From the NCBI GenBank assembly GCA_016783885.1, contig JADHVR010000001.1, forward strand, positions 54,284 to 118,283: a stretch of DNA of 64,000 nt. Reading direction: 5' to 3'. Shown piece after piece: positions 3,243 to 63,061 of the stretch. Below the pieces are notes generated by a model. It worked only from the letters and a program-made list of their open reading frames with translations, made no database searches and was not told where the DNA came from. This DNA is from Bacteroidales bacterium. GTDB lineage: Bacteria; Bacteroidota; Bacteroidia; Bacteroidales; JAADJA01. Numbering within the stretch: the first letter of the stretch is position 1; every line of letters starts with the position of its first letter. Made by a program: the position numbers and the translations under genes.

Positions 3243-3411
3243 TTGAATGGTTGAATGGTTAAATTGTCATTCGGTGGTCATTAAGTAGTCATTCAATAGT
3301 CAGTTCCCGCAATTGCTGGAAACGACAACTTAATAACAGCGAAGCTAAATGACAACAAATGACAGCAAAGCAAATGACCATCAATGACAGCAAAGCGTAA
3401 TGACCAATGAC
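3243..3411. repeat. Intergenic hexamer-array element: 2x TTGAATGG, then 3x GTCATT (11-nt phase), facing 6x AATGAC
   Basis: GTCATT at 3266, 3277 and 3288, plus GTCAG at 3299. AATGAC at 3348, 3358, 3373, 3383, 3399 and 3406 (spacings 10/15/10/16/7). A related element is at 63574-63758. Confidence 0.8.
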
Positions 3412-3443
3412 TAATAATAATTGACATTAACGCACGAACACTT

Positions 3444-4076
3444 TTATACTTTTTCCCGAATCAGTTTCTTCCTCCATGAAATATATCCCATAACAGCAAG
3501 AATTAAAAAAATAATAAACTGGAAACTTGTAAACCCCAAACCCTTGTATGCATAAAGAGGAACTGAAATCACATTGCCGATAATCCATAAAATCCAGTTT
3601 TCTATTTTTTTCAATGCCATCAGCCACATGCCTACGATAAAAACGGCTGTTGTAAAAGTATCAATATATGGTACTTTGGTTGACCAGTATTCTGCGTCAT
3701 CCTGCTTAAATATTTTTAATAATATAATAATAACAATAAGCGATAAAATAAACATTCCAATTGCAATCAGCCAGTCTTTACGGGTGCAGGCAGTTATTCT
3801 AATCCTGGGCTGTGCTTTTTTCTTTGCCCATTTGTACCAGCCATATACACTCATGATAAAATAAAACAGGTTGATTCCTGCATCGGCATATAGCTTTATT
3901 CCAAAACAGATGTAAACATAAATAAGGACGCTTACTATTCCAGTAGGGTAAACCAGTATTTTCTCCTGCCTGGCAAACCAAACGCTCATCAAACCAAACA
4001 CAACTGCAATGAATTCAAGCCAGGTTGTATCAAGAATGTTATTCCTTATTGTTTCTATTATAGCTGCGGTATCCAT
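3444..4076 (-). CDS. pnuC: PnuC-family vitamin (nicotinamide riboside / possibly thiamine) transporter
   Basis: 210 aa, polytopic. N-terminus ...WLEFIAVVFGLMSVWFARQEKILVYPTGIVSV... and a W-rich C-terminal half are typical of PnuC. Confidence 0.8.
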   Translation of the reverse strand: MDTAAIIETIRNNILDTTWLEFIAVVFGLMSVWFARQEKILVYPTGIVSVLIYVYICFGIKLYADAGINLFYFIMSVYGWYKWAKKKAQPRIRITACTRKDWLIAIGMFILSLIVIIILLKIFKQDDAEYWSTKVPYIDTFTTAVFIVGMWLMALKKIENWILWIIGNVISVPLYAYKGLGFTSFQFIIFLILAVMGYISWRKKLIREKV

Positions 4077-4130
4077 AAAAGAGTGCCTAAAAAACCAAAT
4101 TTCAAAAAGCTAAAAACCAAAAATCAATAA

Positions 4131-4373
4131 CTATCTAAGGTCTGCATTAATTATTTTTAAAATAAATACCGAGTTGGGGAGTTCGAATGACTTATGTATT
4201 TCTCTAATTATGGCATCCATTACATCGAAATACTCACCAAAAACCTGCGTGCTCATTGTGTTGGTCTTGCATTTAATTTTGCTGTAAGTATTGAGTCTGC
4301 CGATAAAATCCACTATATGTGGAATATACCTTTCATTTAATGGGTAATAACTGATTTCAACAGATGTTTTCAT
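4131..4373 (-). CDS. DUF77 / MTH1187 / YkoF-like small (thiamine-binding family) protein
   Basis: About 80 aa, starting from the second Met (MKTSVEISYYPLNERYIPHIVDFIGRLN...). Size and beta-alpha pattern fit the MTH1187/YkoF family. First gene of the pnuC operon. Confidence 0.45.
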   Translation of the reverse strand: MKTSVEISYYPLNERYIPHIVDFIGRLNTYSKIKCKTNTMSTQVFGEYFDVMDAIIREIHKSFELPNSVFILKIINADLR

Positions 4374-4402
4374 ATTGAGATATTTTAAAAGCAAAATTAT
4401 AA

Positions 4403-4729
4403 TTAACGACTGTATAAATAATTTTTTTTTGAATAATTCATAATTTTTTTCTTAATACCACCAAATATCACATAAACAACATCTTCATTTGAATAAATCC
4501 CCACATTTTGCTGATTAGTTTCATCAATGCCGTTAGGCTCACCAAAGTGAAGCAGTAACCTGTTGGGATCATCCCCAATTCCCACATTTCCCGAATTATC
4601 CCTCGCCACAGCCTGGTATTTAAATACTTGTGGTGTCTAAGAATAAGAAAGGATTGCCGAAACAATAATGACCGAAAGAAATAATACAAACTTTTTCAGT
4701 ATAAAAGTTTTTATGGAATTTGATTTCAT
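4403..4729 (-). pseudogene. Decayed paralogue of the N-terminus of the neighbouring tail-fibre-like repeat protein, with an in-frame TAG
   Basis: Reading from the ATG at 4729 gives MKSNSIKTFILKKFVLFLSVIIVSAILSYS*TPQVFKYQAVARDNSGNVGIG.... It aligns to ...ISANAQSPQAFKYQAIVRDATGE of the 747-aa protein. The TAG at 4639-4637 aligns with a Gln, which could be a one-base change (CAA in the paralogue). Confidence 0.6.
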
Positions 4730-52015: not shown

Positions 52016-55000
52016 ATGAGGTTTATTAAATCCGAACATATTAAATCGCTTTTTTTTATAAATTTTTGCGCTTTTATTACCTTTTTGATTTTAAGTAATA
52101 ATTACGCCCTGGGTAATAATTTCTCAATTGAAAAAGACTTATCAGATGCTGAAAAATATTACATGACTGCACAAAAATACTTTTCAAACACAGAAGAATA
52201 TGATAGTGCAGTTGTAAATTATACACACGCAGCATCTTTGTTTCTTAAGCTTGAAGACTGGAAAGGTTTAATTATGTGTAATCTGAAATTAACAGAGTGC
52301 TTTAATATTAAAGGAGAATTTCAATTAGCTTTAGATAATGCCAACCGGGCGATGCAGATTGCCGATTTACATCTTTCACAAGATGAATTACTCTTTTCGG
52401 ATATTTATTATTTATTGGGAAAAACTGAATACGAATTGGGAAATTATAATGAATCCATCTCACGTTTAAAAAAGGGATTACAATATATTGATCATAGTAA
52501 AACCGAATATGACAGTATAAAAGTGCTTGTTTTTAAAACATTAGGAAATAATTATCTCAGGCTGGGGAAATTAAATATAGCATTAAAATCGTATAATGAC
52601 GCATTATACATTGAATTTGATAGAAATGGCGATTCTACTTTATCTGTTGCTGTTTTATATGCCAACATCGGAATTGTTTATTCAGCCAAAGGCTATTATT
52701 TTGAGGCTGAAAAATATATAAGAAACTCTATAAGAATTACGGAACAGTTGCTGCCTGTAACAGATCCAGAATTGGCAAGGGGTTATGTGAATTTAGGAAG
52801 GCTTCTGGTAATAATAGGGAATACTAATGATGCCCTGAACTATTTTAATAAGGCAGAAGAAATTTATATTGAAAAGTTTGGACCGGATTATTATAAACTG
52901 GCTTTAGTTTATTTTAATAAAGGAGGTATATTTATTCTGAAAAATGATTTTCAAAAAGCTTTAACTTATCACGAAAAAGCCTTAGAAATTTATTCGAAAT
53001 ATTTAAAGCCTTCAAATGCTGTATTTGGAAAATTATATGGCAACTTCGGGTTGATATATAAAAATTTAGGTGATTATAATAAAGCCATTGAATTTTATAA
53101 AATAGCTATTGATAAAATTTCGAATACAGAATCTGAAATTATCGGATTAAGAAATTTAGCCACTTGTTATCAGGCTATAAATGACTATGATAAAGCCGGG
53201 TTTTATTATAGGCTTTCAATTGAGAAAGCCATTGAACTCTTTGGGAATAATCACACTCAACTTGCAGATTGTTATTTATATTTTGGTGAATTTTATAATG
53301 AGATAAATGATTTTGATAAAGCAGGAGAATTATTCAATAAAGCATATTTTATATATAAAAATAATTTTGGAGAGAAAAACAGGGATGTAGCAAACGTATT
53401 AACTTATATTGGCGATCTTTTTTTAACACTTCAGGATTATAATAATGCTTTGAATTATTATCAATCGTCATTATTATCCATTGTTAATAACTTTAACGAT
53501 AGCATTATTTATAATAATCCGGTTTTATCGCAACTCACCCAGGATGTAAATACAATTGATTGCCTTGATAAAAAGGCAAAAACATTTTATTTTTTATATT
53601 TAAAAAAAACTAATAATATAAATGATCTGATCGCCTGTCTTGAATCGGGCGAACTTGCCATTCAGTTATTTGAGATTATTAGAGTTTCATATACCGGTGA
53701 GAGTATTAAATTACTGGCAACTCAAAAAATAAACAATCTTTACAAGATATTAATATTAGCATCAGTTGAATTATATAAAAGAACCGGAGATACTCAGTAT
53801 TTGAAATCAGCATTTGAATACTCTGAGAAAAACAAAGCGGCTGTTCTCCTGTCATCAATAAAAGAATTAGAGGCAATGGATTTTAGTAATGTTCCTGTTG
53901 ATATTATGGATTTTGAACGATCCCTGAAAAATGATCTTGCAAATTACAGGAATTTAATTTTTGAGGAAGAACTAAAAAAAGAACCTGATGAAGATAAACT
54001 TATTAAATGGAAAAATGATTATTTTGAAATAACAAAAAAATATGATAGCCTGATATCGAATATAGAAAATAACTATCCTGAATATTATCAATTAAAGTAT
54101 GATAATAGTGTAATGGATATTGATAAAATCCAGGCGGGTTTAAGTGATGAGGATGTGTTTATCGAGTATGCACTTGTTGATTCTGTTTTAGTAATTTTTT
54201 GTATCTCATCCGACACATTAATTTATAACCTTGTGAACCTGAAGAATAATTTTAAAGAAAATGTGCTTAGTTATATCGAAATAACACATAATTTACCCGA
54301 AATAGAAAATAGTAAAGAAGGATTTATTAAATTTACAAATCTTGCCCATGAATTATTTCAATTTTTACTTGAACCAATTAGTGATTGCATATCAGAAAAA
54401 AAATTATTGATTATTCCTGATGATATTCTTGGTTACATCTCTTTTGAAAGTTTAATTAATAGAATGCCTGATACCGGTAAAGTCAATTATAAAAACCTTT
54501 CCTATATAATCAAGAACCATTCGGTTTCATATAGTTATTCAGCTACACTTTTATTTAAAGAATTAACAAAAAGAAAAAATACCGGGAAATTATTAGCTAT
54601 GGCTCCCCTTTATAATAATATAAATGATACATATAATATTGGTTATATAAACAGAATGGAGTACGAACAGCTTATAACCCCATTGGATTATAATGTTGAT
54701 GAGGTAACACAAATTCATGAAATAATGGGGGGTAAAAGCCTTACCGGCAAAGAAGCTTCTGAGAAATATTTCAAACTAAATGCTCAAAAATATAATATTC
54801 TTCATTTGGCAATGCATGCATTTATAAATGATGATGAGCCATTAGCCTCAAAATTAGTTTTTACATTTGATACTGATTCAATTGAAGATGGTTTTTTAAA
54901 CACGTATGAGATTTATAATCTGGACTTGAATGCACAATTGGCTGTATTAAGTGCTTGTAAAACCGGAGCGGGTAAATTAAGCAAGGGTGAGGGTATTATG

Positions 55001-55351
55001 AGTCTGGCTCGTGGATTTTTTTATGCTGGCGTACCCGGTATAGTTATGACTTTATGGGAGATTGAAGACGTTTCGAGCGCTGAAATTATGACAGAATTTT
55101 ATAAAAGCCTTAAAAGAGGTTTGACGAAAGATGAAGCCCTGAGAATTGCTAAATTGTCCTATCTCGAGTCAGCGAACCAGTTAAATGCTCATCCTTATTT
55201 CTGGGCTGCTTATGTACAAATTGGTGACAATTCACCAATTGCCACCAATTTTTTTATTAAGCATTATTATTTTTTTATTATTATATTCCTTGCTTGTATA
55301 GGAAGTGTTTACCTTGTAAAAGTTATTAGTGCCAGGAAAAAATCAAAATAA
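52016..55351 (+). CDS. Membrane-anchored TPR-repeat plus CHAT-domain (caspase-fold) protease
   Basis: 1111 aa. N-terminal hydrophobic signal/anchor. About 500 aa of TPR-like repeats (YYxLGxxYxxLGxYxxAIxxY pattern). C-terminal CHAT with His in ILHLAMHAF and Cys in AVLSACKTGAG. Terminal TM YFFIIIFLACIGSVYLV. Confidence 0.8.
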   Translation: MRFIKSEHIKSLFFINFCAFITFLILSNNYALGNNFSIEKDLSDAEKYYMTAQKYFSNTEEYDSAVVNYTHAASLFLKLEDWKGLIMCNLKLTECFNIKGEFQLALDNANRAMQIADLHLSQDELLFSDIYYLLGKTEYELGNYNESISRLKKGLQYIDHSKTEYDSIKVLVFKTLGNNYLRLGKLNIALKSYNDALYIEFDRNGDSTLSVAVLYANIGIVYSAKGYYFEAEKYIRNSIRITEQLLPVTDPELARGYVNLGRLLVIIGNTNDALNYFNKAEEIYIEKFGPDYYKLALVYFNKGGIFILKNDFQKALTYHEKALEIYSKYLKPSNAVFGKLYGNFGLIYKNLGDYNKAIEFYKIAIDKISNTESEIIGLRNLATCYQAINDYDKAGFYYRLSIEKAIELFGNNHTQLADCYLYFGEFYNEINDFDKAGELFNKAYFIYKNNFGEKNRDVANVLTYIGDLFLTLQDYNNALNYYQSSLLSIVNNFNDSIIYNNPVLSQLTQDVNTIDCLDKKAKTFYFLYLKKTNNINDLIACLESGELAIQLFEIIRVSYTGESIKLLATQKINNLYKILILASVELYKRTGDTQYLKSAFEYSEKNKAAVLLSSIKELEAMDFSNVPVDIMDFERSLKNDLANYRNLIFEEELKKEPDEDKLIKWKNDYFEITKKYDSLISNIENNYPEYYQLKYDNSVMDIDKIQAGLSDEDVFIEYALVDSVLVIFCISSDTLIYNLVNLKNNFKENVLSYIEITHNLPEIENSKEGFIKFTNLAHELFQFLLEPISDCISEKKLLIIPDDILGYISFESLINRMPDTGKVNYKNLSYIIKNHSVSYSYSATLLFKELTKRKNTGKLLAMAPLYNNINDTYNIGYINRMEYEQLITPLDYNVDEVTQIHEIMGGKSLTGKEASEKYFKLNAQKYNILHLAMHAFINDDEPLASKLVFTFDTDSIEDGFLNTYEIYNLDLNAQLAVLSACKTGAGKLSKGEGIMSLARGFFYAGVPGIVMTLWEIEDVSSAEIMTEFYKSLKRGLTKDEALRIAKLSYLESANQLNAHPYFWAAYVQIGDNSPIATNFFIKHYYFFIIIFLACIGSVYLVKVISARKKSK

Positions 55352-55360
55352 CTGATATTT

Positions 55361-56101
55361 TTATTGCAGGTATTCTAAAATATCTTCGGCTTGGCTTGCA
55401 TAGTAACTTTCACTTTTTGAAATCTTATTAAATTGTTCAATTGCTTTGTCTTTTTGTTTGTTCATCAGGTAAATTAAACCTAAGTACCAGTCAGCTTGCT
55501 CAACAAAGAGATTATTATTGTCATTGATGACGAATTCAAAAGACCCGATGGCATTATCATATTGTTCTAACTCAATATAACATATACCAGAATAAAATTT
55601 GGCAGTAATTTGACTCTTTAAAGCAGAAAAGTACAATAAAGCTGTTTCATAATCCTTTTGCTTATAATAATTAAAAGCATTTTGCAATGCTTCATCTGAA
55701 GACATTTTAACTGACCTGACTTGCTTTATTGGATGAGCAGGTTTATAATATTTGATAGCAAGTTTTTCGGTAGAGTATGTTCTGCTTGAGAGCATATACC
55801 ATAAGCCACCGGTAACTAAAATTAAAGCAAATGAAGCTGCTGCAAGATGCCAGGTTTTAATCAAATCTCTGTGAATATTCAGGAATGGATAATTGAGGGA
55901 ATAATGCTTTTTTTGTTTTTCCAGTTTTTTTCGCAGTTCCATTAATCCTTTATCCATAATTGCATGATTGATCTCGTAACGCAAATTGAATTCATTTGCA
56001 AGTTCTTGGTTGTTTTCTTTTTCCTTGATAAATTGCTGAACTTCTTTTTCTTTCAGGTTGCCATCAAGGTAATCTTCGATAATATTAAATTGTTCGGTCA
56101 T
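55361..56101 (-). CDS. Putative anti-sigma factor: N-terminal sigma-binding-type helix region, one TM, C-terminal TPR domain
   Basis: 246 aa. IEDYLDGNLKEKEVQQFIKEKENNQELANEF, TM WHLAAASFALILVTGGLWYML, and TPR-like YYKQKDYETALLYF...IELEQYDNAIGSF. Lies directly downstream of the sigma gene. Confidence 0.6.
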   Translation of the reverse strand: MTEQFNIIEDYLDGNLKEKEVQQFIKEKENNQELANEFNLRYEINHAIMDKGLMELRKKLEKQKKHYSLNYPFLNIHRDLIKTWHLAAASFALILVTGGLWYMLSSRTYSTEKLAIKYYKPAHPIKQVRSVKMSSDEALQNAFNYYKQKDYETALLYFSALKSQITAKFYSGICYIELEQYDNAIGSFEFVINDNNNLFVEQADWYLGLIYLMNKQKDKAIEQFNKISKSESYYASQAEDILEYLQ

Positions 56102-56120: not shown

Positions 56121-56696
56121 TTATTTCATTTTAATTATTTCCTTATATCTTGGATCTTTTTTAATACTTGCTACTAAATTTTCTTTACAGTAATGTTTGC
56201 GCTTTTTTATATAAGCTCCGCTTTTATACCTTAATATTCTTGCTATTTCTTTCACGGGAATACCAGCTAAAAATAATTCAAGAATTTTTTGACAGTTAAA
56301 ACTTAACTTTTTAAAATGATCCTGATAAATTTTATATCTATCATTTGCCTCAATAACTGTTGTTATATTTTCATCCAATTCTACAAACCTTCCGGATTCT
56401 TCTAAGTATAATTTTTTTAATTTTCGTTGTTCAAGTTGTTTGAGCCATAACAGCCTGCAAATCGAATAAAAATAAGTATCAAAAGAACAATTTAGTGTGG
56501 TTTCTTCCTTCTGTAATTTTTGATATATAACTAAAATAGCATCCTGATAAATATCCTTTGCATCCTCCCTCGTTCCAAAATTCTGATCTATAAAAGCTCT
56601 AATTTGATAAAAACAGTTTCCATAAATATAATTCAGAACATCTGCATTCATATTTTGAATGCCATTTAATACTTCTTCTGGTGAATATTCCCGCAC
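56121..56696 (-). CDS. ECF-type sigma-70 family factor
   Basis: 191 aa from the GTG at 56696. The ATG at 56651 (MNADVLNYIY) is the more likely start, because the GTG lies only 6 nt from the conserved upstream motif. Region 2 is EDAKDIYQDAILVIYQKL and region 4 is IPVKEIARILRYKSGAYIKKRKHYC. Confidence 0.8.
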   Translation of the reverse strand: MREYSPEEVLNGIQNMNADVLNYIYGNCFYQIRAFIDQNFGTREDAKDIYQDAILVIYQKLQKEETTLNCSFDTYFYSICRLLWLKQLEQRKLKKLYLEESGRFVELDENITTVIEANDRYKIYQDHFKKLSFNCQKILELFLAGIPVKEIARILRYKSGAYIKKRKHYCKENLVASIKKDPRYKEIIKMK

Positions 56697-56738: not shown

Positions 56739-56880
56739 TTTTTTATACTTTTTTTCAACAAAAAAGTTAACTGATTGAATATCAGATAAAAAAAATCATA
56801 TTATTTTAGAGGATAAAAAGTTATTTACAGTACAATTTTAGAAAAAAAAAAGGTACGTTAAACAAAAAACGTACCTTTAA

Positions 56881-58047
56881 TTAATCCCATATTCCATTAA
56901 TGATTGTTTTACAAAATTTACACTTACCGTTTTCAATATTGTTTTCGAGTAGTCTATAACCTTTTCTTTTAATAATTATTTTATTACAATTAGGACAAAA
57001 AGTGTTTTCAGCATCAGATCCGGGTACATTTCCGATGTAAATATAATTAATACCTGCTTTAATAGCAACATACCTCGCCTTTTCTAATGTTGAGACAGGA
57101 GTTGCCGGTAAATTTGTTAGTTGATACTGAGGATGAAACCTGCTGAAATGAAGCGGTGAATCTTTAAAACCATTCTCAGCCAGCCATTCACACATTTCTT
57201 TTATCACATCCAAATCATCAGTCCAGCTTGGTACAATTAAATTGGTTATTTCGAGCCAGACTCCTTCTTCTTTCAGGATTTTTAAGGTGTTTAACACCGG
57301 CTCTAATGTTCCGGCATTGAGCATTTCATAAGTTTCATTGCTGAAAGATTTCAGGTCGATATTTGCTGCATCAATATATTTGCACCATTCTCTTAATGGT
57401 TTTTCATGAATATATCCCGCAGAGACAATAATATTTTTTACTCCTTTTTCTCTTGCAATTTTTGCAGTATCCAATGTGTACTCGTAAAAAGCAATCGGCT
57501 CTGAATATGTGTATGCAATCGATTTACAGTCGTATTCAAGGCATTGTTCCACCACTTTTTCAGGCATTAAATCATAGTTTCTTGTCTTTTGGGGGCTTGT
57601 TTGCGAAATTTCCCAATTCTGACAATTCAGACATGCCAGGTTGCATCCTGCTGTTGCAATTGAGAATGCATTGCTGGTTGGGTAAAAATGATAAAGCGGT
57701 TTTTTTTCAATCGGGTCAACATGCACTGCACATGGATTTCCATAAGCGGTGCTGTAGAGTTTTCCGTCAACATTTATCTTTGTCCGGCAATCGCCTTCCT
57801 CGTCCGGTTTAATATTGCATTTATTGGGGCATAACTGGCACTTTAATCCTTTGGGTGTATTTACATAATATTTTGCTTCAATGCTCCATTTGTCTAAGTC
57901 GCCTGAAAATGAGGGCAATCCTGTGGCATGTTCCATTGCTATTGCTTTTGACAGGAAATTTAAGTTGCAGAAACCATAAGATAAAGCCCCGATACTTAGA
58001 GCGCTTTTTTTTAAAAATTCTCTTTTTGATATTTTGTTGTGAGCCAT
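56881..58047 (-). CDS. AmmeMemoRadiSam-system radical SAM enzyme with a Tat-like N-terminal signal
   Basis: 388 aa. CNLACLNCQNW (CX3CX2C). The N-terminus MAHNKISKREFLKKSALSIGALS resembles a twin-arginine signal with KR in place of RR. C-terminal CPNC...CKFC. Confidence 0.8.
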   Translation of the reverse strand: MAHNKISKREFLKKSALSIGALSYGFCNLNFLSKAIAMEHATGLPSFSGDLDKWSIEAKYYVNTPKGLKCQLCPNKCNIKPDEEGDCRTKINVDGKLYSTAYGNPCAVHVDPIEKKPLYHFYPTSNAFSIATAGCNLACLNCQNWEISQTSPQKTRNYDLMPEKVVEQCLEYDCKSIAYTYSEPIAFYEYTLDTAKIAREKGVKNIIVSAGYIHEKPLREWCKYIDAANIDLKSFSNETYEMLNAGTLEPVLNTLKILKEEGVWLEITNLIVPSWTDDLDVIKEMCEWLAENGFKDSPLHFSRFHPQYQLTNLPATPVSTLEKARYVAIKAGINYIYIGNVPGSDAENTFCPNCNKIIIKRKGYRLLENNIENGKCKFCKTIINGIWD

Positions 58048-58195
58048 AGTGAAAACGTGTACAGGGTGTTATAAGTTTATCATTATTGATAAAATTAAAT
58101 ATTCCGTAAAATCTTATTAATCTCAGATAAGGACAACCCTGTTAATTAATATGCAAAGGTATGGGATTTTAATCATATATTGATTTTACCCGAAA

Positions 58196-60331
58196 TTACT
58201 TTTTTGTTTTAAGCATTATTAATATACCTGTAATAATGTTAAGTAAACCTATAATCAAACTTACTTTTATTATTCCAAAGTATGGAACTAATAATGCTGA
58301 AACTAACAGCGCACCAACTGCCGAGCCTAACAGGTCGGAACCATAGGCTGTTGCAGCGATTACAGAAATGTTTATTGTCCTTAGTTTGGATGCCAGTGCA
58401 AACTGTATTCCCGTTAAAATGCCAATTGTAAATATCAAAATCATGAAGATTAAGTGAACACTGAAGTTATTCTTTAAAAAGGAATTTAATATCAGCAGGA
58501 TAACAGGAAGAACAAATGAGTATAAACCAATCAGATATTGCATTTGATAATATCTTTTTAAGTTAATCCTGACTTTTTTATAAAGATAAATTGAACCAAG
58601 CGCCAAGCCTATCATAAACACTGTGATAATTATCCCTATCATTAAATAAACATAGCCATAAATTACCTGAAAGGCAATAAGTAAAAGCACCTCGATAGAA
58701 GATGCCGAAAAGCCTGTTGTAAAAAGTCCGAGATTTACGATGTTGAGCCTGAGAATTATATAAAAAAGAGGTATAAGTAGAATTAATCCGATTATCAGCA
58801 AATTTTGTTTAAAATAGCTGAGCCAATATTTTAATTGTAAAAAATATGCAAGTGGCTTAAAATCTTCATTAATATCAACATCTGTCGTTAATGCATCTTC
58901 TATTAACTTACTGCGGTCAGATACCAGGGCATCGTCTAAATAATACAGGTTTACATATTCATTTTCTATGTTCTTCAATTCGATTAGCTGCGTAATTTTG
59001 TATGATAATTTGCCATCAGAAGCAATAAAATAATTTCTTCCTCCCGGAATTATTATCACATTTTTAAAAACCTTTTTTAATGTAGTAAAAAGTACCGAAT
59101 GAATTTGTGCGGCTTCTTCGCTCATGTAGTGTGATGTGGACATCAGACTAATAGAAATAACCGCATCTTTGTTTAAAACTCTTTTTAACTCTTTAAAGAA
59201 CTCAATTGTATAATACCTGTTTATCTGGGCATTTGCAGGATTAGGCAGATTTATCAAAACAACATCATATTTTATTTTTGATTTTCTGATGAACAGCCTC
59301 GCATCTTGGTTTATAATGTTTACTTTTTTATCTATAATGATATTGTCAGTCAGTTTTTTCCCGATTTCAATCAGCCGGGGATTAATTTCAACATAATCGA
59401 GCGATTTTATATTGTATTTTAAAATCTCATTTACTGTTCCTGAAATACCGCCCGAAATGAGTAATACATTTTCAGGATTTGGATGCTGAACCATTGCGTA
59501 ATGCACATTTTCTTCATTTGATACTGTATTTTCGGTTGAAAATAATGAAACTCCGTTTTCGAAAAAATTCAATTGGTCAGCAGTTTTTGTAACTGTAAGG
59601 TAACCATAAGGTGTATCCTTTTGATAAACAATTTCCTGGTTCTTATATAAATAACCGGCAGAAATACTATCAATATCATTGATAAACAATACTACGGAAA
59701 TAATTATGGTAATCAATGTCAGAACAGATGCCGTAATTATTTTTTTGTTAGAAAGTAATAATATGATTACTACAGCAAAATTGATTATTAGTATGATTTC
59801 AAGGCTAACAAAGGTTTTTAACAGGAAAAGAAATACAAAATTAAACAGCAATCCCCCCGCAATGCTTCCGAATGCTTCTATACCATAAACTTTATTGATT
59901 ACATTAGATTTATAAATCGAAAACAGATATGAACTGAATATGGTGAAAAGCAGCCCGGAAATAAGGCAAAAAGGCGCAATCAAAATCAGCGAGCCAAAAA
60001 AAATCTCAATCAGGCTGATCATTTTACCCGGCGGGAACACAATATTTCTTAGGTAATTTAAAAGGAATACAGTTATTAGGGGCAGGATTCCAATGAGTAG
60101 CTGAGCAGGGATTATTAATTTTATTTTGTTCTTAATTTTATCGGCAAACTTACCAAGGTATGCTCCTATTCCTGTCAGGAGCATCCAGTTGGCAAAGATG
60201 ATACCTATTACCAGTTCGTTACCATTGAAAACCGAAAGAAATTCTCTTAATAAAATAATTTGTGTTATCAGGCAGGTAAATCCGAGAATAAAAATTGAAA
60301 TTTTTATACTATGTTCGTTTTTGATAAACAT
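58196..60331 (-). CDS. Polytopic membrane protein with a central spermidine synthase-like (aminopropyl/methyltransferase fold) domain
   Basis: 711 aa. About 7 N-terminal and about 6 C-terminal TM helices flank VLLISGGISGTVNEILKY...YVEINPRLIEIGKK...DVVLINLPNPANAQINRYYTIEFF. Confidence 0.7.
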   Translation of the reverse strand: MFIKNEHSIKISIFILGFTCLITQIILLREFLSVFNGNELVIGIIFANWMLLTGIGAYLGKFADKIKNKIKLIIPAQLLIGILPLITVFLLNYLRNIVFPPGKMISLIEIFFGSLILIAPFCLISGLLFTIFSSYLFSIYKSNVINKVYGIEAFGSIAGGLLFNFVFLFLLKTFVSLEIILIINFAVVIILLLSNKKIITASVLTLITIIISVVLFINDIDSISAGYLYKNQEIVYQKDTPYGYLTVTKTADQLNFFENGVSLFSTENTVSNEENVHYAMVQHPNPENVLLISGGISGTVNEILKYNIKSLDYVEINPRLIEIGKKLTDNIIIDKKVNIINQDARLFIRKSKIKYDVVLINLPNPANAQINRYYTIEFFKELKRVLNKDAVISISLMSTSHYMSEEAAQIHSVLFTTLKKVFKNVIIIPGGRNYFIASDGKLSYKITQLIELKNIENEYVNLYYLDDALVSDRSKLIEDALTTDVDINEDFKPLAYFLQLKYWLSYFKQNLLIIGLILLIPLFYIILRLNIVNLGLFTTGFSASSIEVLLLIAFQVIYGYVYLMIGIIITVFMIGLALGSIYLYKKVRINLKRYYQMQYLIGLYSFVLPVILLILNSFLKNNFSVHLIFMILIFTIGILTGIQFALASKLRTINISVIAATAYGSDLLGSAVGALLVSALLVPYFGIIKVSLIIGLLNIITGILIMLKTKK

Positions 60332-60376
60332 TTTGTAAATTTGTTATTTTAAAACGAATACGAAATTAATCAAATT

Positions 60377-61915
60377 ATGAGCATGAAAAAATGTATCCTT
60401 TCCGTGATTGTTTTCCTGGCTTTATTATGTACAGATTGTTCGGCACAGGAGAGCAAAGAAAAAAGCCAGTCAAACCAGCAGATCTATAACCGCCAGCCTG
60501 CCGTTGCCGGACAGTTTTATCCTGCTGATAAGAATGAATTGGAAAAAATGCTGGGCAATCTGTTTTCGCAAGCTGAAACAAAAAAGAAAGAAAATGTGCT
60601 TGCCGTTATTTCGCCTCATGCAGGCTATGTGTTTTCGGGTGAGGTTGCTGCTTCAGGTTTAAACCAGATTGACCCGGAAAAATCTTATGAAAATATTTTT
60701 GTGATTGCTTCGAGCCACAGAGCATATTACGAAGGAGCTTCGATTTATTACCTCGGAAATTATATTACTCCGCTTGGAGAGGTTAAAGTTAATATTGACC
60801 TTGCAAAACAACTTGCCGAAAAAAATAAGGTTTTTTCTTATGTGCCCAAAGCCCATATATCTGAACACAGCATCGAAGTTCAACTTCCGATGTTACAATA
60901 CAAAATGAAAAAGGATTTTCAGATTGTGCCAATCGTTATAGGAACGCAATCGCAGAAGGTTTGCAGGGAAATGGCTGAAATACTGAAACCTTATTTTAAA
61001 AAGAATAACCTTTTTGTGATAAGTTCTGATTTTTCGCATTATCCGCCTTATGAAGATGCCAATAAACTGGATATAGAAACTGCCGAAGCAATTATATTAA
61101 ATAATCCTGACGAGTTTATTAAAGTTATAAATGATAAGAAAAATGCCAGGGTTCCGGATTTATCAACACGTGCCTGCGGCTGGACCTCCGTGCTTACATT
61201 ATTATATATAACCGAAAACAATCTGGATGTTGAATATGCCTTTATTCAATACATGAATTCGGGTGATATGGATTTTGGTGATAAAAGCAGGGTAGTAGGT
61301 TATAATTCAATTGTAGTTAGTGAAAAGAAAGGTTCCGTTGAAAATACTGAATTCCGGCTTACTGATAAAGACAAAAAAGATTTGCTCGAAATTGCACGGA
61401 CAACTATTGTTGAATACATTTCAAACAATGAAGTTCCGAAACTAAATTCCGGCGATTACTCCGATAACCTTAAAGTGCATTGCGGCGCTTTTGTAACTTT
61501 GAATAAAAACCACAGCTTGCGCGGGTGTATCGGAAGGTTTATAGCCGATGAGCCTTTGTATAAAGTTATTCAGCAGATGGCTGTTGCATCTTCTACACAA
61601 GATACACGTTTCCTGCCGGTAAAGAAAGAGGAAATTAACGACATTGAAATTGAGATTTCTGTTCTGACCCCCATGATAAAAATCGAATCGATTAACGAAA
61701 TTGAGTTGGGTAAACATGGGATTTATATTAAAAAAGGATACAGGTCAGGGACTTTCCTTCCACAGGTTGCCACTGAAACGGGGTGGAATTTAGAAGAGTT
61801 CTTAGGGCATTGTGCAAGAGATAAAGCCGGAATTGGATGGGAAGGATGGAAGGATGCCGATGTCTATATTTATGAAGCTAATGTGTTTATAGAGGAAGAT
61901 TTTAAGGAAAAATGA
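60377..61915 (+). CDS. Fused AmmeMemoRadiSam protein B (MEMO1-like) and protein A (AMMECR1) with an N-terminal signal peptide
   Basis: 512 aa. Signal MSMKKCILSVIVFLALLCTDCSAQ. MEMO part VAGQFYPADKNELEKML...VISPHAGYVFSG. AMMECR1 part GAFVTLNKNHSLRGCIGRF...GTFLPQV. Confidence 0.85.
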   Translation: MSMKKCILSVIVFLALLCTDCSAQESKEKSQSNQQIYNRQPAVAGQFYPADKNELEKMLGNLFSQAETKKKENVLAVISPHAGYVFSGEVAASGLNQIDPEKSYENIFVIASSHRAYYEGASIYYLGNYITPLGEVKVNIDLAKQLAEKNKVFSYVPKAHISEHSIEVQLPMLQYKMKKDFQIVPIVIGTQSQKVCREMAEILKPYFKKNNLFVISSDFSHYPPYEDANKLDIETAEAIILNNPDEFIKVINDKKNARVPDLSTRACGWTSVLTLLYITENNLDVEYAFIQYMNSGDMDFGDKSRVVGYNSIVVSEKKGSVENTEFRLTDKDKKDLLEIARTTIVEYISNNEVPKLNSGDYSDNLKVHCGAFVTLNKNHSLRGCIGRFIADEPLYKVIQQMAVASSTQDTRFLPVKKEEINDIEIEISVLTPMIKIESINEIELGKHGIYIKKGYRSGTFLPQVATETGWNLEEFLGHCARDKAGIGWEGWKDADVYIYEANVFIEEDFKEK

Positions 61916-62130
61916 AATTCCGTAGAAATACAATAAAAATATTGATGTTATTGTTCTATCCATACGGACTTCCTTCGGTCGTTGTTCTATTGTTTCATTC
62001 GAATAGTGTCTGTCTATTATATTAATGTATAATGATAGCAACTTGTAAAATCAAAAAAATAAATACCATAACTCCCACTTTTCAAAAAAATTGGTTTTTG
62101 TGCCGAATATTTCGGTACGGTTTATCCGGG

Positions 62131-62301
62131 TTATGTTTGACTATCAATTCTATTATTTAATTCTTTCTCTTTATTTTTCAGAATTATTAGTTCTTTTTCT
62201 TCATTTTTCGACAACTTGCTTCGCTCTTGTTTTGTCTCCAGTTCTATTATCTTCATCGAAATATCATAACGTTGTTTTTTAAGCTTATCAATTTTTTTCA
62301 T
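62131..62301 (-). CDS. Possible small coiled-coil protein (56 aa), below the ORF-track size cutoff
   Basis: MKKIDKLKKQRYDISMKIIELETKQERSKLSKNEEKELIILKNKEKELNNRIDSQT*. ATG start. The hairpin GTGCCGAA-tat-TTCGGTAC at 62100-62118 lies just downstream. Confidence 0.3.
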   Translation of the reverse strand: MKKIDKLKKQRYDISMKIIELETKQERSKLSKNEEKELIILKNKEKELNNRIDSQT

Positions 62302-62436
62302 GGGTCAAAAAGGTATTTAAAACATAAAAATCTGTTATACAGCGTAAAATTAATTTATTTTTTGTCTTTATATTAATTTATTTTTGTACATTTACAGTTT
62401 TTTAAATCAAACTTCTAATACCGAAAACTAAATATT

Positions 62437-62664
62437 ATGATAATAGCAATTATCTTAATTGTATTATTATTCTACGCAGGCTTTATTATTGTAAATATTT
62501 TAAGAACCGAAAATAAAAGAAAAAATTTGAGAGTGGGTGAAGTTTGTAAAGTATATCTTGGTGAAAATAAACTAACTGGTTTTATAATGAAAGTTAATTC
62601 GGAAGTGGATGTTTTGGTAATAAACAAAGTTTTCAGATTCTCCAGGGACCAGATATACGCATGA
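62437..62664 (+). CDS. Hypothetical small membrane protein
   Basis: 75 aa. N-terminal TM MIIAIILIVLLFYAGFIIVNIL. No recognisable domain. Confidence 0.3.
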   Translation: MIIAIILIVLLFYAGFIIVNILRTENKRKNLRVGEVCKVYLGENKLTGFIMKVNSEVDVLVINKVFRFSRDQIYA

Positions 62665-63016
62665 GAAAGACTTAAACTCAACTTTCGCAGTTTATTATAT
62701 AAGCATTTCGTATTATACATCCAATATCCTGAATAAGCATTATTAATGGCAGTCTGTGCAAAAACCACTATTGTTTTTTAATAGGGATTTTAAACCGACA
62801 CTGAACAAATACACATACGATAATCGGGTATTCGCCAATCGAATTTTCATCAATTATTTGTTCCCTTTTCATATTTAACCATATTCATCGAATAACATCT
62901 AATTCTCTGGTGAATATACTCTTACCTTTAATTCTCCTCTCGCTATAATTTGTTAATAAAATTTAATCCCTGAATCGTATAACAAATCTGTAAAAAAGGA
63001 GTTATTTCAATACTAT

Positions 63017-63061
63017 GTGGGAAAAAGTGGAAAAAGTTGTTAACAGGTGGTAAAATGTGGG
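63017..63061 (+). promoter_or_regulatory. MraZ operator-like array: GTGG boxes phased at 10 bp
   Basis: GTGGG at 63017, GTGGA at 63027, a degenerate slot at 63037 (TTGTT), GTGGT at 63047 and GTGGG at 63057. The last box lies 40 nt upstream of the mraZ ATG. Confidence 0.6.

Follow-up and report, generated by a model that had tools for sequence, protein, structure and literature searches.

A predicted extracytoplasmic AmmeMemoRadiSam system linked to a SpeE-like membrane protein with 14 predicted helices

Three adjacent genes encode a version of the functionally unexplained AmmeMemoRadiSam enzyme set that carries export signals and is linked across phyla to a predicted 14-helix membrane protein, suggesting that a radical SAM (rSAM) enzyme works outside the cytoplasm. 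The genes lie in a 64-kb stretch of Bacteroidales DNA (contig JADHVR010000001.1), referred to here as the window. An rSAM enzyme is encoded at 56881-58047 on the minus strand, a membrane protein with a central SpeE fold at 58196-60331 on the minus strand, and a fusion of Memo and AMMECR1 at 60377-61915 on the plus strand. The original prediction that the set is exported and split around a spermidine-synthase-like membrane protein is confirmed at the level of gene content and supported in its interpretation. Of the two explanations it offered, a genuinely periplasmic variant is better supported than enzymes anchored at the cytoplasmic face. Three details need amending: the membrane protein has 14 predicted helices instead of about 13, the Tat motif in this genome is K-R and not R-R, and the SpeE-like domain lacks the catalytic acids and is unlikely to be a spermidine synthase. 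We consider an extracytoplasmic, membrane-associated system with the SpeE-like protein as an integral fourth component to be the best reading, with a probability of roughly 0.55. No description of such a system was found in the searchable literature.

The rSAM enzyme (388 aa) scores 366.7 bits on TIGR04337 (cut-off 220) and 66.3 bits on PF04055. The TIGR04337 match spans aa 63-387, leaving about 60 residues as an N-terminal extension. The protein has a CX3CX2C motif for the SAM-binding [4Fe-4S] cluster (C135/C139/C142), which is present in 63 of 64 related sequences, the exception being truncated. It also has an N-terminal 4-Cys motif (C70, C73, C77, C87) and a C-terminal pair of CxxC motifs (C351/C354, C376/C379), and the cysteines are at least 90% conserved in 53 orthologues. 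The fusion protein (512 aa) matches TIGR04336/Memo over aa 39-314 with 250 bits (cut-off 26) and TIGR04335/AMMECR1 over aa 336-504 with 168.7 bits (cut-off 99). The Memo metal ligands (H81, H164, D218/H221, C267) and the AMMECR1 LRGCIG motif (aa 381-386) are conserved, as judged from residues at least 90% conserved in 45 orthologues. The three families lie within 5 kb in the window, and the same cluster is seen in 30/47 well-flanked related loci.

The rSAM N-terminus: residues 1-37 (57937-58047, minus strand) form a Tat-like signal or anchor, comprising the n-region motif S7-K8-R9-E10-F11-L12-K13 (nt 58009-58029), the mildly hydrophobic h-region SALSIGALSYGFCNLNFL, and A-I-A|M. Signals were judged by motif, hydropathy, conservation and the TIGR01409 Tat-signal model. 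The motif [ST]-K-R-x-F-[IL]-K followed by an h-region is present in 111 of the 120 closest rSAM homologues. Arg9 and Phe11 are at least 90% conserved across 53 rSAM sequences from many phyla, the same level as the Fe-S cysteines. The maximum Kyte-Doolittle value over 12 residues is 1.44 for the window rSAM and 1.71±0.21 for the family, compared with 3.24 and 2.36 for the Sec signals of the fusion protein in the window and in its homologues. A less hydrophobic h-region is a known property of Tat signals. However, the window peptide lacks consecutive arginines and gives no hit to TIGR01409 at its cut-off of 16.7 bits, and another K-R homologue scores 12.5 bits. Orthologues outside the Bacteroidota/Ignavibacteriota, including archaea, Planctomycetota, Verrucomicrobiota, Nitrospirota, Clostridia and others, carry a canonical S/T-R-R-x-F-L-K motif (22 of 59 motif-bearing sequences), and 6 of 8 of those tested pass TIGR01409 at 17.9-27.8 bits. 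No tatA or tatC was found within the 64-kb window. In contrast, tatC (PF00902, 172.9 bits) lies in the cluster in 11 of 160 related loci, one of which reads tatA-tatC-rSAM, and one Bacteroidota contig also encodes a canonical RR-signal oxidoreductase.

The fusion-protein N-terminus: residues 1-23 (60377-60445, plus strand; MSMKKCILSVIVFLALLCTDCSA|Q) form a Sec-type signal peptide, with the basic n-region MSMKK, the strongly hydrophobic h-region CILSVIVFLALLC, and a signal peptidase I site C-S-A|Q with Gln at +1, as in the Bacteroidetes Gln +1 rule. A Sec-type signal with C-x-[SAG]-Q within the first 45 aa is present in 104 of the 120 closest homologues, and a small-x-small|Q site in 94/120. 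Orthologues in other phyla carry a signal peptide, a lipobox (as in Planctomycetes) or an N-terminal anchor. Start-codon misassignment is ruled out for both proteins because the N-terminal motifs are conserved in homologues down to about 35% identity.

The SpeE-like membrane protein: the 711-residue protein scores 78.9 bits on PF01564 (cut-off 22.9; aa 275-420) and 45.1 bits on NF037959, ‘fused MFS/spermidine synthase’ (cut-off 40). An AlphaFold2 model (pLDDT 88.5, pTM 0.87) displays 7+7 transmembrane helices. TM1-TM7 (aa 5-217; 59681-60319, minus strand) span residues 5-34, 39-65, 69-98, 107-140, 145-170, 173-194 and 198-217, with TM1-6 forming the first six-helix repeat and TM7 an extra helix. 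In the second half (aa 511-710; 58202-58801, minus strand), TM8 is the extra helix and TM9-14 form the second repeat. The two six-helix repeats are homologous and in the same orientation, since hhalign matches aa 7-197 to aa 530-711 with a probability of 95.6% and E=1.3e-8, although no Pfam MFS model hit the helical parts. The SpeE-fold domain (aa 233-505; 58817-59635, minus strand) is predicted to lie on the outer face of the membrane. This placement, on the side opposite the termini, follows from the helix count, the parallel six-helix repeat and a strong positive-inside bias, the short loops carrying 16.5 K/R on the predicted inside against 1.4 on the outside, averaged over 69 homologues.

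The SpeE-fold domain matches 1uir, 1inl, 3anx and others in Foldseek, with E down to 4e-12 and a TM-score of about 0.7 normalised to the target, covering the whole two-domain fold of spermidine synthase. Residue alignments to 7xif, 1uir and 1iy9 show GGISG in place of GGG(D/E)G, whose acid selects decarboxylated SAM, and NLPNP in place of D(S/L)(S/T)DP, which holds the catalytic Asp (the family consensus is GGISG and NLPDP). The ribose-binding acid E315 and the adenine-binding D343 are retained. Equivalog-level scores fall far short, with 75.9 bits against 249.6 for TIGR00417 and 97.1 against 260 for NF002010. The PRK03612-type membrane SpeE proteins also have N-terminal helices followed by a SpeE domain, but the PRK03612 score of 170 bits is far below its cut-off of 472, and the second seven-helix half after the SpeE domain is not part of that model, which is 522 positions long. 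NCBI gives the NF037959 name to homologues of the window protein, but the name is descriptive only, and we found no paper on function, topology or a link to AmmeMemoRadiSam.

Linkage between the SpeE-like gene and the rSAM is strong. In 42 of 47 well-flanked SpeE-like loci from more than 10 phyla of bacteria and archaea, the rSAM lies within 3 kb, whereas 33/47 have Memo or AMMECR1, and in some phyla the SpeE-like gene occurs with the rSAM alone. In a set chosen by rSAM, 23/30 signal-bearing genes have the SpeE-like gene nearby, as opposed to 0/7 signal-less genes (Fisher p=3.3e-4); the remaining seven signal-bearing loci had no SpeE-like gene within 3.5 kb. Classical rSAM members start a few residues before the first Cys motif (MKEALFYE...), have no signal, and had no SpeE-like neighbour in the 7 well-flanked loci or in 26 loci with short flanks. 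They share the three protein families, Cys motifs, Memo metal ligands and LRGCIG motif with the system described here, but form a separate cluster in a rough NJ tree. The pattern is not uniform. A small clade of about 9 sequences in this tree, including the Omnitrophota loci, has Sec-type signals on the rSAM, which is hard to reconcile with export of a folded Fe-S protein, and another clade has a signal-less rSAM next to a signal-bearing Memo-AMMECR1.

We used this information to generate a model of the system, in which localisation is inferred from motifs, hydropathy and a predicted structure. First: the rSAM enzyme folds and receives its Fe-S clusters in the cytoplasm and is then moved across the inner membrane by the Tat pathway, using a K-R variant signal in Bacteroidota and Ignavibacteriota and R-R in other phyla, and may stay tethered to the membrane by an uncleaved signal. 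Tat-exported Fe-S proteins such as hydrogenase small subunits, NrfC and the Rieske protein (a Tat-inserted N-terminal anchor), and TtrB with its natural K-R signal, are probably the nearest parallels, though these appear to be electron-transfer subunits and not SAM-cleaving enzymes that need a diffusible cytoplasmic co-substrate. In the anaerobic sulfatase-maturating enzyme (anSME), also tied to exported proteins, the rSAM enzyme itself likely stays in the cytoplasm and modifies its client before export. Second: Memo-AMMECR1 is exported by Sec and cut at CSA|Q. Third: the SpeE-fold domain sits on the periplasmic face, held between the two lobes of an MFS-like transporter by two extra helices, where it meets the two exported enzymes.

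The fourth step is the most speculative. The SpeE-like domain has lost the aminopropyl-transfer residues but keeps its adenosine-binding residues, and its gene follows the rSAM more faithfully than Memo-AMMECR1 does, so the protein most likely binds an adenosyl compound and moves it across the membrane, either delivering SAM to the exported rSAM or taking away 5'-deoxyadenosine and methionine. This SAM-handling role has no direct support, and the domain could instead be an active methyltransferase. A precedent for an MFS protein proposed to bring SAM into a topologically external compartment is given by the plant Golgi SAM transporters, GoSAMTs (bioRxiv 10.1101/2021.07.06.451061), which are eukaryotic and have no fused SpeE-like domain. 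No rSAM enzyme is known to work outside the cytoplasm, and no external source of SAM or low-potential electrons has been shown. Accessory electron-transfer modules that span the membrane recur, with a DsbD_2-type gene in 6 loci and a His-rich 3-TM N-terminal module in about 10-15% of homologues, which fits a need for reductant on the outside. The substrate is presumably an envelope-associated or external molecule found in both bacteria and archaea.

A possible but less likely alternative is that the system is extracytoplasmic and the SpeE-like protein is a working enzyme-transporter for the pathway's substrate. Its outward-facing Rossmann domain would methylate or otherwise alkylate a lipid-linked or small-molecule substrate, which the MFS-like domain would flip or import, while the rSAM, Memo and AMMECR1 carry out further steps. 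The complete SpeE/class I methyltransferase fold and the retained adenosine-binding residues agree with this view, and loss of the acid that excludes the SAM carboxylate is what one would expect after a switch from decarboxylated SAM to SAM. Conserved polar residues also lie inside the helices (Q24, R29, E39, N48, W49, E152, Q555, Y558, D666), and Memo contexts may be linked to isoprenoid or nucleobase modification (Burroughs et al. 2019). However, this alternative would still need SAM outside the cell, the general-base Asp of the SpeE family is Asn in the window protein, and the SpeE-like gene tracks the rSAM more closely than it tracks Memo-AMMECR1.

It is doubtful that the hydrophobic N-termini are uncleaved anchors or docking helices that hold cytoplasmic enzymes at the inner face of the membrane. 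This reading fits the known biochemistry of rSAM enzymes, as SAM and reductant are available in the cytoplasm, and it agrees with the sub-threshold K-R motif of the window, with the poorly conserved c-regions of the rSAM signals, which make cleavage uncertain, and with those relatives in which a signal-less rSAM lies beside a signal-bearing partner. Yet an N-terminal helix preceded by K/R places the rest of the protein outside by the positive-inside rule, the Memo-AMMECR1 signals have proper cleavage motifs, RR orthologues pass TIGR01409, tatC is clustered with the system, and three independent lines of evidence predict that the SpeE-like domain itself faces outward. An incidental arrangement, with an unrelated polyamine gene between its neighbours and signals that are gene-calling artefacts, could be entertained only from the window alone, where the gene is divergent from one partner and separated by 148 bp from the other, and is for practical purposes refuted by the linkage across phyla, the contrast with signal-less loci, the residue-level conservation of the N-termini and the missing aminopropyltransferase acids.

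Radical SAM chemistry is assumed to be confined to the cytoplasm because SAM, Fe-S assembly and low-potential reductants are found there, and a large and ancient branch of one rSAM family appears to break that rule. The branch occurs in at least 579 of about 185,000 species genomes, with carriers in cultivable genera such as Draconibacterium and Mangrovibacterium, and about 50 of 80 sampled environmental family members carry an N-terminal signal, mostly RR/KR-type. In its boldest form, which we regard as less likely than not on present evidence, this would be the first family of rSAM enzymes that works outside the cytoplasm: exported folded by the Tat pathway, served by a dedicated MFS-like protein whose outward-facing, catalytically disabled SpeE-like domain hands over SAM or removes 5'-deoxyadenosine, and supplied with reductant by lineage-specific membrane electron conduits (CcdA-like or b-haem-like modules). 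If so, the ancestral job of Memo and AMMECR1, two proteins of unknown biochemical function that are conserved from archaea to humans and linked to human disease, could concern an envelope or external substrate.

The SpeE-like and Memo-AMMECR1 genes diverge across a 45-bp intergenic region (60332-60376) that contains TAAATTTG (60336-60343, plus strand), 33 nt upstream of the Memo-AMMECR1 start codon. This element matches the Bacteroidetes -7 promoter consensus TAnnTTTG, and its assignment as a promoter is inferred from the published consensus. At the other end, a terminator-like hairpin, recognised only as a consensus match with an 11-bp stem followed by a T-run (56849-56878, minus strand), lies 3 nt after the rSAM stop codon and probably marks the end of the SpeE-like/rSAM transcription unit.

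ORF listing confirmed three genes in the window: 56881-58047(-), encoding 388 residues; 58196-60331(-), encoding 711 residues; and 60377-61915(+), encoding 512 residues. The first is an AmmeMemoRadiSam radical SAM (rSAM) enzyme that scores 366.7 bits on TIGR04337 against a cut-off of 220. The match starts only at residue 63, so about 60 residues lie upstream of the family core. The third gene is a fusion of Memo (TIGR04336, residues 39-314) and AMMECR1 (TIGR04335, residues 336-504). The middle gene carries a spermidine-synthase domain (PF01564, residues 275-420) and reaches the cut-off of the NCBIfam model NF037959, 'fused MFS/spermidine synthase'. The two minus-strand genes are separated by 148 bp and are followed by a terminator-like hairpin, whereas the divergent gap to the fusion gene is 45 bp. 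A sigma-70 promoter scan was no better than shuffled sequence (41 hits against 32±6), and these organisms use a different promoter type. No RNA family was found in the 55-64 kb region. The surroundings are Bacteroidota-like, with about 30% G+C, a protein bearing a T9SS sorting tail, and MraZ, and the closest database copies are labeled Bacteroidales MAGs.

The signal-like N-termini are real. Among the 120 closest rSAM homologs (62-100% identity), 111 carry the motif [ST]-K-R-x-F-[IL]-K followed by a Gly/Ser/Cys-rich hydrophobic stretch, and most of the rest are shorter gene calls. Met38 could be an alternative start for the rSAM, but the upstream 37 residues are conserved in 111/120 homologs and Met38 is not. 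In a cross-phylum alignment, Arg9 and Phe11 of the motif are at least 90% conserved, like the Fe-S cysteines, and start-codon reassignment is therefore excluded. The h-region of the Bacteroidota rSAM signals often contains Cys, either as GCGxC or in a lipobox-like L-x-[AGS]-C; the window signal (57937-58047) has a single Cys (YGFCNL). Among the 120 closest Memo-AMMECR1 fusions, 104 start with a basic n-region, a strongly hydrophobic core, and C-x-[SAG]-Q, which fits a signal peptidase I site with Gln at +1, as appears usual in Bacteroidetes.

To ask whether the SpeE-like gene is a true partner, we scanned one genome per species with an alignment of the 711-residue family and found at least 579 relatives. 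The best 80 loci come from Bacteroidota, Ignavibacteriota, Planctomycetota, Verrucomicrobiota, Omnitrophota, Nitrospirota, Myxococcota, Deltaproteobacteria, Clostridia, and several archaeal groups, according to the taxon labels given in the MAG records. The window's proteins were then searched against all ORFs of these loci. Among the 47 loci with at least 3 kb on both sides, 42 have the rSAM within 3 kb and 33 have Memo or AMMECR1. As a control, 80 metagenome loci were fetched using a classical, signal-less rSAM as the lead query. About 50 of the 80 carry an N-terminal signal, mostly of the RR or KR type. Of the signal-bearing genes with adequate flanks, 23 of 30 have the SpeE-like gene within 3.5 kb, whereas none of the 7 well-flanked signal-less genes has it (Fisher p=3.3e-4), and neither do 26 further short-flank ones. 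Chance synteny was rejected on these grounds. In a rough neighbor-joining tree, the classical signal-less enzymes cluster apart from the signal-bearing ones.

Outside the Bacteroidota and Ignavibacteriota, the rSAM motif is a canonical twin-arginine motif, for example ISRREFLKYSLIGLGG, ITRREFLKKAAVGAVG, and LSRREFIKKTVIATAG. Six of eight such peptides pass the Tat-signal model TIGR01409, although the window's K-R peptide does not. The rSAM h-regions are clearly less hydrophobic than the Sec signals of the fusion proteins. In addition, tatC (PF00902, 172.9 bits) lies inside the cluster in 11 of 160 loci, mostly archaeal and clostridial, and one locus reads tatA-tatC-rSAM. Neither tatA nor tatC was found in the 64-kb window, the only part of this genome searched. 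The Memo-AMMECR1 partners in other phyla carry signal peptides, lipoboxes (in Planctomycetes, ...ITIGC, ...LGGC, ...FAGC), or N-terminal anchors, and in one locus (L037) where Memo and AMMECR1 are separate genes, each has its own anchor. On one Prolixibacteraceae contig of the Bacteroidota (L044), a 437-residue oxidoreductase with a canonical RR Tat signal (MSNRRVFIKKSAMATAGVG..., 3395-4708(-)) sits near a K-R-type rSAM. K-R thus looks like a trait of this protein rather than of the lineage, although this rests on a single case.

AlphaFold2 with 120 homologs gives a confident model of the membrane protein (pLDDT 88.5, pTM 0.87), built of seven helices, a SpeE-fold domain at residues 233-505, and seven more helices. 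No Pfam family was found in the two helical halves. Profile comparison, however, shows that TM1-6 and TM9-14 are homologous and run in the same direction (probability 95.6%, E=1.3e-8), which is the 6+6 plan of MFS transporters; TM7 and TM8 are two extra helices. Because the two repeats must sit the same way in the membrane, the domain between TM7 and TM8 lies on the side opposite the repeat ends. Averaged over 69 homologs, the loops predicted to be inside carry 16.5 Lys/Arg and the short loops predicted to be outside carry 1.4. The termini are therefore predicted to be cytoplasmic, with the SpeE-like domain facing out. Longer homologs add three N-terminal helices whose charge pattern fits the same orientation.

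The predicted fold of the SpeE-like domain matches solved aminopropyltransferases throughout, with a TM-score of about 0.7 normalized to the target. In residue alignments, GGG(D/E)G is replaced by GGISG and D(S/L)(S/T)DP by NLPNP, whereas the acid that binds the ribose (E315) and the Asp near the adenine (D343) are kept. Both diagnostic acidic motifs are missing and the equivalog scores fall below cut-off. The protein is therefore very unlikely to be a spermidine synthase, but it probably still binds an adenosyl compound.

We infer that the rSAM is loaded with its clusters in the cytoplasm and moved by Tat, that Memo-AMMECR1 goes through Sec, and that both meet the outward-facing SpeE-like domain. 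We put the probability of extracytoplasmic localization at about 0.75-0.8. The SpeE-like gene follows the rSAM more faithfully than Memo-AMMECR1 does, and its domain probably keeps adenosine binding but not catalysis. We therefore favor, only tentatively, a role in handing SAM to the exported enzyme or in removing 5'-deoxyadenosine and methionine, with the MFS-like part acting as the conduit. No external SAM pool is known. Plant GoSAMTs are a precedent for MFS proteins proposed to carry SAM into a topologically external compartment.

Variable accessory membrane redox modules fit a need for electrons outside. First, a CcdA/DsbD_2-type membrane gene (PF13386, 71 bits) occurs in six loci, between the rSAM and the SpeE-like gene. 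Second, about 10-15% of SpeE-like homologs (821-864 residues) carry an extra N-terminal three-helix module (first ~125 residues) with four conserved His (HRKIWN, LHVDFG, FHFxWH). Pfam gives only sub-threshold hits to this module (DUF4405 17.8 bits, Ferric_reduct 17.7, Cytochrom_B561 17.0); it may be a b-heme electron conduit, and the window protein does not have it. Third, a small cytochrome-b-like ORF occurs in three loci.

Two groups of loci do not follow the general pattern and are unexplained. A small clade has Sec-type signals on the rSAM, always together with the CcdA-like gene: of the six loci with that gene, one (L074) has no rSAM called, and in the five where an rSAM was called, it has a Sec-type signal rather than a twin-arginine one, which would imply export of an unfolded Fe-S enzyme. 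Another clade has a signal-less rSAM beside an exported Memo-AMMECR1. In one case (locus L085, 2105-4290), the gene order is tatA, tatC, a 325-residue signal-less AmmeMemoRadiSam rSAM, and then a 72-residue ORF with an RR signal (MHRRKFLKLLAAVSL...), so that the rSAM may be co-exported with a signal-bearing partner. In locus L095 (2538-9535), an NrfC-like 4Fe-4S protein with an RR signal, an NrfD-like membrane protein, a DoxX-like protein, and a rhodanese-like protein with an N-terminal hydrophobic segment lie upstream of a signal-less rSAM and a signal-bearing Memo-AMMECR1. Similar signal-less rSAM genes next to exported fusions occur in five further loci (L096, L100, L108, L145, and L152).

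The system is a member of the AmmeMemoRadiSam family by every sequence criterion, and differs from the described form in its predicted location, in the Memo-AMMECR1 fusion, and in its almost constant membrane partner. No solved structure is closer than PFL activase, human MEMO1, and archaeal AMMECR1 'hypothetical proteins'. The searchable literature holds six passing mentions of AmmeMemoRadiSam, and we found no paper on its function, on exported radical SAM enzymes, or on the SpeE-like partner, although Burroughs et al. 2019 (J Biol Chem 294:10211, PMC6664185) may already mention secreted or membrane-linked Memo contexts. AMMECR1 was still listed as uncharacterized in 2019 and in 2026.

On one side of the system, a 1.1-kb AT-rich stretch between the fusion gene and mraZ (61916-63046) has no ORF of 100 residues or more and no Rfam match. 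On the other, an ECF-like sigma factor (56121-56696; Sigma70_r2 at 23.6 bits, just under the cut-off), a TPR protein with one membrane helix (55361-56101), and a 1111-residue TPR-CHAT protein (52016-55351) lie next to the system. We rejected the idea that these three downstream genes are part of the system, because they are shared by only 3 closely related loci; the same trio is found in loci L001 and L004 only, so this looks like synteny within one lineage.
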